Origin: Candidatus Latescibacterota bacterium
Lineage (GTDB): Bacteria; Latescibacterota; UBA2968; UBA8231
DNA length: 64,000 nt
Direction: 5' to 3'
NCBI GenBank assembly: GCA_965217585.1
Contig: OZ244561.1
Coordinates: 2,560,001-2,624,000, forward strand
In this document: positions 58,249 through 61,740 of the stretch, in pieces
How the letters are laid out: every line of letters starts with the position of its first letter
Numbering within the stretch: the first letter of the stretch is position 1
The notes under the pieces: model-generated
Database searches by the model: none
Seen by the model: only the letters and a program-made list of their open reading frames with translations
Told to the model about the DNA's origin: nothing
Translations under genes and position numbers: made by a program

Positions 58249-59818
58249 AGCTGGTTTCAAAACTCTCATAGGGGTTACGGTTGAATATATCGGTGGGTTA
58301 GGCGTATTTTTCGATCATCGAAAAGGAGCGGTGCGATGGTCGAGTATACCGGTGAAGTCACCGAGGCCCAATGGGCCAAAATTGAGCCTTTGTTGCCCCA
58401 ACGACCCCGTTCGCCGAAAGGGGGCCGTACCCGCATCCCCGATCGCGCGGTGTTGGAAGGGATTTTATGGGTCTTATACCGTTTTGCTAATCGTATGTCC
58501 TAATGTTGGCTGTGGCCTCTCGCCACCAAGAGAATCGGGTGAGTTGTACCAATCGCTGGGTGTGTTCCCAGTAGGGTTGCAATAGCCTGGGTCAAGGCTT
58601 GGTCCAGCGCGTCGATGGTGGCAAAGAGCTGATTGGATAACGTGGCTCGCAAGGCTTCAAACCACCGCTCGACCGGATTCAACTCGGGACTATAGGGCGG
58701 CAAGAGCAGGGCTGTATATGCTCCGGCCATACCATGGTTTGGCTGAGATGACTGCCGGCCTGATCCATAACCAAGAGGAGGCAATCATCGGCATAGCTCC
58801 GACTCAATTCATCGATAAACCGTTGAAAACAGACGGTATCCAGATACGGCAGATATAGACAGCAACTGGCCTCGGTGTCCGGCTCGACGGCGGCATACCG
58901 CCACAACCATTCATAGCGATCCTGGACGATCCAAGGCGGACGATATCCACAGGGACCCCAGCGTCGTCGAGGCCCGCTTTTCAAGCCGAAACGCGCTTCA
59001 TCCAAGGCGAAGACTCGCAGGGGCGATCCCCCACCGACGTGGCCGTCTGGCGGAGGTGAGGACCGAAGTTATTTTTTAAACGCGCCCTGCGCTTTCGCCG
59101 AAGCGTGGGCGTGCTGACGGCGACCCGTTTTGAGCTTGATGCGATGGCGTTTACACCAGCGCGACAGCCCGCTGACGCCCTGATAGACGATACCAAACTG
59201 CTGCTGCAGGAAGCTACGGGCCTCTTCCAAGGTGGCAATCTGTCCGGCTTGCATCGCCGTTTCCAGTCCCTGGCGTGCTTCGGCGGTAATGGACTCACGG
59301 CGTCCGCCCCTACCTTGATCCGCTAGCAGACCGGCCAAGCCCTGCTGCTGATACCGCTGCCACCACCGACGTAAGGTCCGATCACTATGGCCCAGAAGGG
59401 GTGCCAATTGGGTCTGGCTGCGATAGCGACCACTTTTGAGCAAGACGCAGCATTTTAACGCGATCCGCTACGGCGGACGTGCGCAGGCGTCTCTCCTGGG
59501 CAAGGAGGGTATCTACGCTTTCTTGAATCCGATCAGGATAATGAATCCACATAAGTCGCTCCCAACAAAAAGGGGGGATTGCGATTGCGGTGCCGCGCAA
59601 CGGGCCGGGCCGACCGCGCAGTCGCGGACAGAGCCTTAGCGGCAGGACGGTCGAAAGCTGCGGCGATACAAACGGCGATACCGCATTGAGCGTACTATCG
59701 GGTGGCTGAGTAGCTTCCGCCGATTGGTCACTCGGTATGAGCGGAAAAGCTCGATGTTGCGCGCCTTTGTTCATCTCGCTTGTATGCTTATCACCGTAAG
59801 GCAGTTTTGAAACCAGCT
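58249..59818 (+). mobile_element. Degenerate IS5-family element, internally deleted and interrupted by IS630
   Basis: 16-bp perfect TIR AGCTGGTTTCAAAACT (58249-58264 / 59803-59818), TTAG on both flanks; N-terminus from 58336 TEAQWAKIEPLLP..GGR..DRAVLEGILWVL; C-terminus YKRRYRIERTIGWL..FRRLVTRYER. Confidence 0.85.
58477..59570 (-). mobile_element. IS630-family element with frameshifted transposase, inserted at a TA inside the IS5
   Basis: orfA HTH from ATG 59552 (RTLRRWWQRYQQQGLAGLL); TTTAAAAAAT slippery junction near 59070; DEARFG, MDQAGSH, LPPYSPELNPVERWF in shifting frames. Confidence 0.85.
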
Positions 59819-59842
59819 TTAGTCGATGGCTCCCCTAATCCA

Positions 59843-60819
59843 ACGTGAGTTCGGGTTAAGCGGCCTCTACTTGGCGTGGTCCATCGTTTTTTAGGGCTGG
59901 TTTTTTGGGTTGGTGGCAATAGGCAATTAATCCGCCGATGAGATGGACCATAAAATTGACCGGGCTGCGATGTCTGGTGTGTTCAATCTGGGCGATATTT
60001 TTGAGTTGATCGATGATGGTTTCGATCAGGGCTCGTTTGCGCAGCAGGAGCTTGTCCGCCATCGGCATGAGTTGATTTTTCATGTTGGATCGCAGCTTGG
60101 TAATCAACTGGAGGTCGAATAGCTCTTTCAATTGTTTGCCCAGCTTGTTGGAAAGGTATCCTCGGTCGGCAACCAGCTTGCCAAACAGGTCGCGCACCAA
60201 GCCGGGTACGGGTTTGCGATCATCGACGTTGGCTGGGGTTAGCGCCAAGTTGAGCAATTGACCTCGATTATTGAAGACCAGATGCAGCTTGAACCCGAAA
60301 AACCAACCGGTCGAACTTCGGCCCCATTGGGCTAGCCCCGCAAAGAGTCGGTGCTGGTGTCTACGATGGGGATTACATATGGCCAACGGCGTCGAGTCAA
60401 TAAACGAAATACCCGTGCAGGCTCCTTGGCATTGACGTAGATAGGCGCATAACGGAATAAGCGCCGAAGGGATTAACTCGACAAAGCGTCCATAACTGAC
60501 TAACCGGGGAAAAGCACCGCGTAGGTGCCTACAGACACGATGCTGGTAGAAGGCTTTGAACGTGCGGTACTGGGACTGGTGAAACCAAATAAACAGCGTC
60601 ATGATCTCGCTCAAACAGAGTTGACCAGCACGACGACGACGGTGACCGGTCGTTACTTGGTGGCGTATCCACTGGGCCTCAAAGGCTTGGCAAAAGTCAT
60701 CGACGTGGCAAAACAATTCGACTAAATTCATCGCGAGGGCTCCTCGATGGCTGAGCTTTATGGTCGGCATACCTAAGTTTAGCCAAAAAGGAGTCCCTCA
60801 CCTTAACCCGAACTCACGT
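59843..60819 (-). mobile_element. Intact IS982-family insertion sequence
   Basis: 18-bp perfect TIR ACGTGAGTTCGGGTTAAG; 7-bp target duplication TAATCCA (59836-59842 / 60820-60826). Confidence 0.95.
59856..60731 (-). CDS. IS982 transposase
   Basis: ELFCHVDDFC, FIDSTPL, GWFFGFKLHL, ADRGY, RKRALIETIIDQLK, EHTRHRS. Confidence 0.95.
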   Translation of the reverse strand: MNLVELFCHVDDFCQAFEAQWIRHQVTTGHRRRRAGQLCLSEIMTLFIWFHQSQYRTFKAFYQHRVCRHLRGAFPRLVSYGRFVELIPSALIPLCAYLRQCQGACTGISFIDSTPLAICNPHRRHQHRLFAGLAQWGRSSTGWFFGFKLHLVFNNRGQLLNLALTPANVDDRKPVPGLVRDLFGKLVADRGYLSNKLGKQLKELFDLQLITKLRSNMKNQLMPMADKLLLRKRALIETIIDQLKNIAQIEHTRHRSPVNFMVHLIGGLIAYCHQPKKPALKNDGPRQVEAA

Positions 60820-60844: not shown

Positions 60845-61378
60845 TCAATTAGGCGGCTTTAAATCCCAAGTCGCTATAATGCCCATTATCGTATTCCACT
60901 GTGTGTCGTTCATCGCCTCTACTAGAGAGAGTAGGCCCAACACATCGCGTTCCTTCTGTTTCTTGCGCGCCCGGGCAACTGCCTCTAACCACGATTGATC
61001 CCCGAGCAGAGCCAAGATTTCTGGATTGGAGAGTACCCCCAAGAGGGCTGGGTCCAAAGGCTCTTCGCTAGACAGGAGCTTATTGACCACCGGATCCGAC
61101 AGCGAGCGCATCATCTTGCCATAGAGCGCGCGTCCTTCCTCCGAGCTCGCCTTGGCCTCATAAGCAGCAAGCAACACCCTGTTAGAGTCGAGTTCCAATA
61201 CCTCGGCCAGCTTGATACATACTTCGTCGGAAGGAACCTTCTCCCCCTTTTCAATTTGTCCTATATAGGTTGCCCATACGCCCTTGGGCCTTCGCGCCGT
61301 CACAAGTTGCGTGGCCAAGCCCTGCTGGCTCAGGTGAGCTTGTAGCCGGGCCTCCTTGATCATTTCTGCAAACTGCAT
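60845..61378 (-). CDS. XRE-family HTH transcriptional regulator
   Basis: IKEARLQAHLSQQGLA...TYIGQIEKGEKVPS....KLAEVL; GAGGGA RBS before ATG 61378. Confidence 0.9.
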   Translation of the reverse strand: MQFAEMIKEARLQAHLSQQGLATQLVTARRPKGVWATYIGQIEKGEKVPSDEVCIKLAEVLELDSNRVLLAAYEAKASSEEGRALYGKMMRSLSDPVVNKLLSSEEPLDPALLGVLSNPEILALLGDQSWLEAVARARKKQKERDVLGLLSLVEAMNDTQWNTIMGIIATWDLKPPN

Positions 61379-61419
61379 TCGCGGTCCCTCTGAAATATTT
61401 TCAGCCACCTTCTTTATTA

Positions 61420-61448
61420 AATATACACACACACCAGTAAGTGTGCAA
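61420..61448 (-). promoter_or_regulatory. Sigma70 promoter for the XRE gene, overlapping an ACAC-N10-GTGT palindrome (61427-61444)
   Basis: Minus strand TTGCAC-17-TATATT. Confidence 0.65.
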
Positions 61449-61485
61449 GAGTGTATTGTCTTTTTCTAAACGCATGTTTTTCTGC

Positions 61486-61514
61486 TTGACAACACAATCT
61501 AGCGTGTGTATTTT
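61486..61514 (+). promoter_or_regulatory. Sigma70 promoter for the putative ncRNA, overlapping an ACAC-N10-GTGT palindrome (61492-61509)
   Basis: TTGACA-17-TATTTT. Confidence 0.65.
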
Positions 61515-61520
61515 AATTTC

Positions 61521-61735
61521 TAAATAGAGTGTGGTGGTCCTCTGGTGTGGCCAATGTCCTGATCCGCGAAGCTCGGATTTCCCTTTTCGGGTCGTTGAGA
61601 TCTTCAAAACTACCTCCCCACACCGCCTCGTTTGAGGATCTCACTTGCGTTTCAAGATCACACCATTTGGCCGCCACATGGCCGCCACACTCTAAATGAG
61701 TAAGCAGTCCATTTCTATATGGGCTGCTTTTTTAT
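61521..61735 (+). ncRNA. Putative structured small RNA of unknown family
   Basis: Bounded by a promoter and a terminator; closing stem TAGAGTGTGGTGGTC/GGCCGCCACACTCTA; inner 13-bp stem 61596-61608/61631-61643; side hairpin 61571-61592; no credible ORF. Confidence 0.65.
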
Positions 61736-61740
61736 TTTTA
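61702..61740 (+). terminator. Rho-independent terminator
   Basis: AAGCAGTCCAT-loop-ATGGGCTGCTT followed by a long T tract. Confidence 0.85.

Follow-up and report, generated by a model that had tools for sequence, protein, structure and literature searches.

To our knowledge, pairing between a C-rich RNA and an antisense partner of the kind described here is known only from Bacillus and Staphylococcus, and pairs of a small RNA and its sponge have so far been found by experiment in a small number of cultured organisms. The Cuckoo RNAs of Alphaproteobacteria carry an anti-Shine-Dalgarno CCUCCUCCC motif in their hairpin loops, and 6S RNA is an unbranched rod with a central bubble and a long apical arm. 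The C-rich loops of the 6C sRNA of Actinobacteria (RF01066) have been proposed to bind G-rich mRNA stretches (PMC6486639). RosA of Bacillus subtilis is described as a sponge of RoxS and FsrA that is ~229 nt long and has three G-rich regions for two partners (PMC8216469), and RsaI of Staphylococcus aureus as pairing with C-rich RNAs of the RsaE type (bioRxiv 10.1101/278127).

Here we analyze a 64,000-nt stretch of DNA (the window) from the genome of a Candidatus Latescibacterota bacterium (GCA_965217585.1, contig OZ244561.1; G000 below), in which a structured RNA (RNA1) lies back to back with an XRE-family regulator gene. What is new is the complementarity of one RNA1 loop to a second, unlinked RNA (RNA2). 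RoxS/FsrA with RosA and RsaE with RsaI share with RNA1 and RNA2 the C-rich single-stranded regions, an unlinked G-rich partner with its own promoter and terminator, and a long predicted duplex. RNA2 differs from RosA in its ~50 nt and single seed, RNA1 is end-paired with a three-way junction, and binding is here inferred from covariation. The Bacillus and Staphylococcus RNAs come from another phylum and have no sequence or Rfam relation to ours; by analogy, RNA1 and RNA2 may work like these pairs without being members of either. RNA1 resembles 6C in the C-rich loops on adjacent hairpins and differs from it in the 13-bp closing stem, the middle helix and the antisense partner; RF01066 does not match the RNA1 locus and exceeds its cut-off in 0 of 5 genomes, in a search whose controls also stayed below cut-off. 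The Cuckoo RNAs also carry anti-Shine-Dalgarno loop motifs, but RNA1 has different motifs, has no Rfam match and is single copy.

Results

The RNA1 core occupies 61525 to 61694 on the plus strand and consists of a closing stem, an irregular middle helix and a three-way junction with two hairpins. Its ends pair over 15 bp (61525 with 61694), as proposed in a first-pass annotation made from the letters of the window, and the fold has a z-score of −8.78, with 0 of 200 shuffles as stable. The conserved closing stem is 13 bp; the 15-bp stem of G000 includes an 11-nt tandem duplication in the 3′ strand (61668 to 61689, plus strand), also present in G001. The consensus structure leaves a large internal region unpaired and lacks the CUUG...CAAG hairpin that the annotation had placed on the 3′ side. 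The two pyrimidine-rich loops that it had read as unpaired are so in the structural ensemble. Loop 1 (61578 to 61585, plus strand) reads UUUCCCUU in G000 and mostly UUCCCCUU in deeper relatives, and is complementary to AAAGGGA-type Shine-Dalgarno sequences. Loop 2 (22 nt, 61609 to 61630, plus strand) holds ACCUCC, which is also found in the 16S 3′ end of G000, and 61613–61631 is complementary to RNA2. Both loops complement Shine-Dalgarno classes used in G000. The strong terminator foreseen after RNA1 is present as an intrinsic terminator at 61702 to 61738 on the plus strand (stem 61702–61729 plus a T run), and relatives have a terminator with other stem sequences.

A DNA search matches the RNA1 region in 22 of 24 same-genus genomes, and a covariance model finds RNA1 once each in 47 of the 151 phylum genomes drawn, all in family f1 (46 of the 63 others); no second copy was found in G000. 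Because RNA1 is single copy, a MITE or REP element, which the first-pass annotation had kept in view, is excluded. For the alignment, 59 distinct sequences from loci around XRE homologs were thinned to 29. In these, 97.3% of the cells of the 37 named consensus pairs are paired and 15 of the 37 pairs change on both sides, so the covariation sought among relatives is present. None of 500 shuffles matches it, in a test that kinship inflates, and slid controls pair at 40–47%. The invariant bases are those of the closing stem and the C-rich loops. RNA1 is kept in most XRE-less genera and was not found in g23. Rfam holds no credible match to RNA1, nor any match to six more loci with RNA1, RNA2 or the f2 RNA described below (L027 gave weak Thr-leader and miRNA hits below cut-off). 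RNA1 is thus a genuine conserved, covarying, single-copy structured RNA. The closing stem (61525–61537 and 61680–61694) is nearly invariant in sequence, XRE-less genomes included, which suggests a protein or nuclease site.

Contigs from four RNA libraries of four studies lie on 61530–61676 at depths of hundreds to more than 100,000, compared with 0–72 on the flanking genes; 61404–61529 is uncovered. Since the libraries were picked for holding the RNA1 stretch, and depth adds up over all strains and is biased towards a conserved RNA, the contigs establish presence and give only a hint of abundance.

RNA2 is a G-rich promoter-to-terminator unit of ~50 nt about 1 Mb from RNA1, upstream of zwf/tal (approximately G000:C1:1586155–1586206, locus L052, outside the window). 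It comprises a promoter, a 5′ hairpin with a GAGGCG loop, a G-rich run and a terminator, and the segment complementary to RNA1 61613–61631 lies at G000:C1:1586162–1586180. The site was first met upstream of zwf in a genome scan for perfect palindromes and stands out as the conserved part of its intergenic region. In deeper genomes the promoter reads TTGACA-17-TAnnnT, the terminator pairs covary, and, apart from promoter and terminator, the loop-2 complement alone is invariant. A promoter-plus-seed pattern is found in 46 of 76 family genomes (0 for the reversed control), and an RNA2 model matches 51 of the 76, once each. Six genomes with RNA2 gave no RNA1 match (G020, G049, G137, G149, G150 and G157), which may reflect incompleteness, as they are 77–89% complete. 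In RNA libraries, contig cover of RNA2 is flat and at background level in X3 and X8 and absent in X1 and X12; RNAs of ~50 nt are easily lost from contigs. In G130, RNA2 occurs in two copies (L311, L378) with a longer and different 3′ hairpin.

No antisense match to RNA1 in G000 is better than RNA2, which hits loop 2 with ~18 complementary bases and gives a stronger loop-2 duplex than any other of 5214 start regions (−40.5 versus −31.1 kcal/mol for the next). All 19 cognate pairs tested form predicted duplexes of −34.0 to −48.7 kcal/mol, with about −20 kcal/mol after opening costs in G000. A 16-nt exact match is within chance in a 7.3-Mb genome (21 of 60 random 170-mers reach at least 16), so the case for pairing rests on conservation. 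Both genomes of genus g7 carry C to U in loop 2 together with G to A in RNA2, a double compensatory change that is one evolutionary event. Crossing the G015 RNA1 with the g7 RNA2 costs 7.6 kcal/mol, and in the reverse cross a G-U pair keeps the energy unchanged. G118, G098 and G050 each carry a single change that leaves a G-U pair in the duplex; G120 and G100 have one mismatch each. Cofolding of full RNA1 and RNA2, by a method that excludes loop–loop contacts, gives no net gain. An 18-bp helix within a 22-nt loop requires the hairpin to open.

In all 17 genomes with RNA2, loop 2 departs from its 18-nt consensus by 0–2 bases, and in 10 of 12 genomes without an intact RNA2 it departs by at least 3 (one change in G113 and G115), in a comparison that leaves out G131 and in which the absence of RNA2 from G047, G114 and G125 rests on a truncated or missing anchor. 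Phylogenies of RsmH and the downstream glycosyltransferase group most partner-less genomes into a single clade (support 90/94 and 92/94) that excludes G052 and G095, which reduces the independent losses of RNA2 to about three. Between two sister genomes (support 100/100), both RNAs are intact in G161 and both are decayed in G052. The RNA2 promoter and terminator are kept and the seed has decayed in G052 and G099. A pattern search found no partner for the drifted G052 loop; its syntenic site holds that promoter, terminator and decayed seed. The RNA1 scaffold and C-rich motifs are retained in genomes without RNA2.

Family f2 carries, next to the orthologous XRE gene and at similar loci, a hairpin-chain RNA of ~230 nt with the same two C-rich loop motifs on a different scaffold and no Rfam family (L027-L038, L040, L042, L043, L126, L128, L131, L136, L143, L191, L194); a hairpin chain is also the form of the Cuckoo RNAs. 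This f2 RNA includes a transcribed operator hairpin with co-varying flanks, and a search with one pattern in 5 genomes found no G-rich partner for it. As the loops are kept without RNA2, and in the partner-less f2 RNA, they have a job independent of RNA2.

The XRE-family helix-turn-helix (HTH) regulator is encoded on the minus strand (60845 to 61378) as a single-copy, all-helical protein of 177 aa that matches HTH_3 in a domain search (E = 2.8e-8). Its gene has one match each in 50 of 61 genomes searched and was not found in g19 (0 of 10), g10 (0 of 2), g23 (0 of 3) or single genomes of g6, g21, g22 and g25. The predicted structure (pLDDT 91.7) yields generic HTH matches only in a Foldseek search of the PDB (such as SinR, DdrO and C proteins; best E 0.002), and the C-terminal part has no match there at E ≤ 0.001. 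Downstream of the gene, 58300–60770 of the window holds IS elements where deeper relatives (L021, L022, L024) carry other genes, labelled by eye as a HEAT-repeat lipoprotein and an anti-sigma-like protein.

The two back-to-back sigma70-like promoters of the first-pass annotation stand where it had put them. The predicted XRE promoter (TTGCAC-17-TATATT, 61420 to 61448, minus strand) has identical spacing in close relatives; it was read from the letters, and a promoter scan scored a register one base off. The predicted RNA1 promoter (TTGACA-17-TATTTT, 61486 to 61514, plus strand) is conserved in relatives and scores 10 of 12 in the scan, which finds 3 sites versus 0.9 ± 0.9 in shuffles. The ACAC-N10-GTGT palindromes noted earlier do overlap both promoters, and comparison across relatives refines them to YACAC-N6-GTGTR, giving two predicted XRE operators, O1 (61430 to 61445) and O2 (61493 to 61508), the latter between the −35 and −10 elements of the RNA1 promoter. 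Both are conserved in relatives. O2 is the top-scoring operator site of the genome in a matrix scan, a rank that is partly built in, since these upstream sites served to make the matrix. In deeper relatives, an additional leader of ~80 nt with a third operator lies between promoter and RNA1 core; it is missing in the G000 subclade. Divergent promoters that share operators are kept in two families, and in the XRE-less genomes viewed the RNA1 promoter has no operator and RNA1 is preceded by another gene. These comparisons support an operator that tracks the XRE gene; family-wide operator counts by themselves do not distinguish genomes with XRE from those without it outside genus g1. In G040, an operator lies upstream of an XRE fusion, and no RNA1 match was found there.

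In G000, the mraZ promoter too has two operator sites upstream of it. Of 6 other XRE-positive family genomes, 4 have such sites (not G048 and G120; G015 was read by eye) versus 0 of 5 XRE-negative genomes, which are one clade, and 4 genomes of other families show no clear operator site there. Among 18 further operator-pattern hits fetched from XRE-positive genomes, 9 are upstream of mraZ. The cell-division cluster (mraZ-dcw) is therefore a candidate XRE target. The mraZ-upstream operators number one or two, ~21 bp apart (L053 ~1580–1630, corresponding to G000:C1:5892087–5892125; L403-L406, L410, L413, L416, L417, L420).

DnaA boxes upstream of dnaN (G000:C1:2639750–2640300; L384-L393) likely mark the replication origin; in the eight genomes with both loci located, 18–29 kb separate it from RNA1. 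An operator-like site adjoins the last DnaA box in G000, G015 and G103 (3 of 7 XRE-positive genomes), with a weaker one in G118 and none in G048, G098, G120 or 4 XRE-negative genomes, which hints weakly at an XRE site at the origin. Palindromes at G000:C1:664493, upstream of a ribonucleotide reductase-like gene, and at 2123829 resemble NrdR boxes and were set aside as XRE operators.

Discussion

Our preferred reading, to which we assign a probability of about 0.5, is that RNA1 is an anti-Shine-Dalgarno small RNA and RNA2 its dedicated antagonist. From the structure, conservation, complementarity, covariation and co-occurrence of the two RNAs we infer their binding, the direction of control, the targets and the action of the XRE protein. 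RNA1 would silence mRNAs whose ribosome-binding sites, predicted to be of the GGAGGUAG or AAAGGGA type, pair with its two C-rich loops. RNA2 would be transcribed on its own, bind RNA1 and neutralize it: the GAGGCG loop of its 5′ hairpin would make first contact with CGCCUC in loop 2, and pairing would spread over ~18 bp to cover the CUCCCC motif. That the small RNA binds and neutralizes the large one is likely because loop 2 co-varies with RNA2. The roles are assigned in this direction because RNA1 outlasts the loss of RNA2 and the invariant part of RNA2 is the loop-2 complement. The XRE protein would repress the RNA1 promoter through O2, affect its own promoter through O1 and probably bind upstream of mraZ too, a separable layer of control apparently lost by one clade. 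No mRNA target of RNA1 is an outlier, the matches being generic Shine-Dalgarno complements, and none stands out for RNA2 in a scan of start regions. In G000, a GGTGTGGG occurs at the mraZ ribosome-binding site; lacking conservation, it was rejected as a target of RNA1. One other RNA compared with loops 1 and 2 showed no special complementarity.

The strongest rival, in our view unlikely, takes RNA2 to be mainly the 5′ leader of a pentose-phosphate operon (tal/zwf/glk) on which RNA1 acts in trans. Blocking the base of a terminator stem impairs termination, so RNA1 on the nascent leader, by covering the base of the terminator 5′ arm, would raise read-through. zwf or tal does follow within ~220 nt of the RNA2 seed in 31 of 35 loci, and zwf of G000 starts ~16 nt past the U tract with no second promoter matched; but RNA2 is intact in the other 4 loci, with neither gene within 1.5 kb (G042, G046, G014, G008). 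The predicted duplex reaches 2–3 G at the stem base (by eye in G000, G098 and G050), yet it invades only 2–3 of the 10–13 stem pairs. Moreover, 14 of the 35 loci have another promoter-like element after the terminator and before the gene, by a loose pattern run without a control, and a similar element, seen by eye, precedes the operon in partner-less genomes. A bolder version, which we consider quite unlikely, makes RNA1 a trans anti-terminator that contacts the RNA2 leader loop to loop and turns on the pentose-phosphate operon, with terminated RNA2 titrating RNA1 and the XRE protein acting also on mraZ-dcw and the origin. If true, such an anti-terminator circuit would tie cell division to replication and NADPH metabolism within the family. 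Distinctly improbable is a reversal of roles, with RNA1 an abundant decoy either for RNA2 as the true regulator or for a protein that binds C-rich loops. Deep coverage of RNA1, an invariant closing stem, repeated C-rich loops and the lack of a clear RNA1 mRNA target would all fit a decoy. Against it, RNA1 is kept where RNA2 is lost, RNA2 has only the loop-2 complement as its invariant part and no standout mRNA target, and no candidate protein was identified.

The first-pass annotation had also raised a highly divergent 6S RNA, which would bind sigma70 RNA polymerase with RNA2 as its modulator. RNA1 does share with 6S RNA its size (~160 nt), end pairing, single copy, deep RNA-library coverage and a large unpaired internal region, but it has no RF00013 score at E ≤ 10, it branches into a three-way junction with two short hairpins where 6S has a long apical arm, its most conserved bases are in the apical loops, and its promoter is overlaid by an operator. 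The f2 counterpart is moreover a hairpin chain with the same loop motifs. RNA1 does not lie at zapA-rny, where G000, G103 and G104 have nothing and no room for a 6S RNA (zapA hits in G015 and G048 are other copies). We leave this reading only a small likelihood, because no other 6S was detected in 61 genomes: RF00013 matches 0 of the 61 (G000 and 60 relatives), with a control search that reached cut-off in 4 of 14 known genomes. We give least credence to the cI/cro-like switch first suggested for the locus, taken as a bistable one in which RNA1 would feed back on the XRE gene. The shared operators of the back-to-back promoters stand, in both families, and in f2 the pairing of loop 1 with the ribosome-binding site of XRE falls within the top 0–16% of the genome-wide background. 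The feedback is not conserved: the f1 pairing ranks anywhere from the top 1% to 66% and is weak in deeper members. Nor is the linkage obligate, as RNA1 persists in XRE-less genera.

Under the preferred reading of a C-rich small RNA and its antagonist, the pair has been recognized purely from genome sequences, through compensatory changes between the two molecules and their correlated decay, and the natural g7 allele pair makes binding directly testable in vitro. RNA1 and RNA2 are two families absent from Rfam 15; motif catalogues outside Rfam, or supplements, could hold either. A literature search, with most subscription papers outside it, found no relevant RNA study on 6S RNA or small RNAs in Latescibacterota.

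The analysis also provides a first putative operator and a candidate target (mraZ-dcw) for a lineage-wide XRE regulator. Like SinR, DdrO, restriction-modification C proteins and phage cI, this regulator combines an N-terminal HTH and a helical C-terminal part with palindromic operators at its own promoter; unlike them, it occurs once per genome at a conserved place and has operators also upstream of mraZ. At G000:C1:5835718, a strong operator lies directly 5′ of a promoter-like site (TTGACA-17-TATTAG) with no clear gene before an IS, and possibly controls another XRE-regulated RNA. Family f4 has an in-frame fusion of the XRE HTH to a domain of ~520 aa (L044:3352–5247, L045:3108–4967), which we take to resemble methylmalonyl-CoA mutase, and in L044 a perfect operator lies upstream of the fusion.
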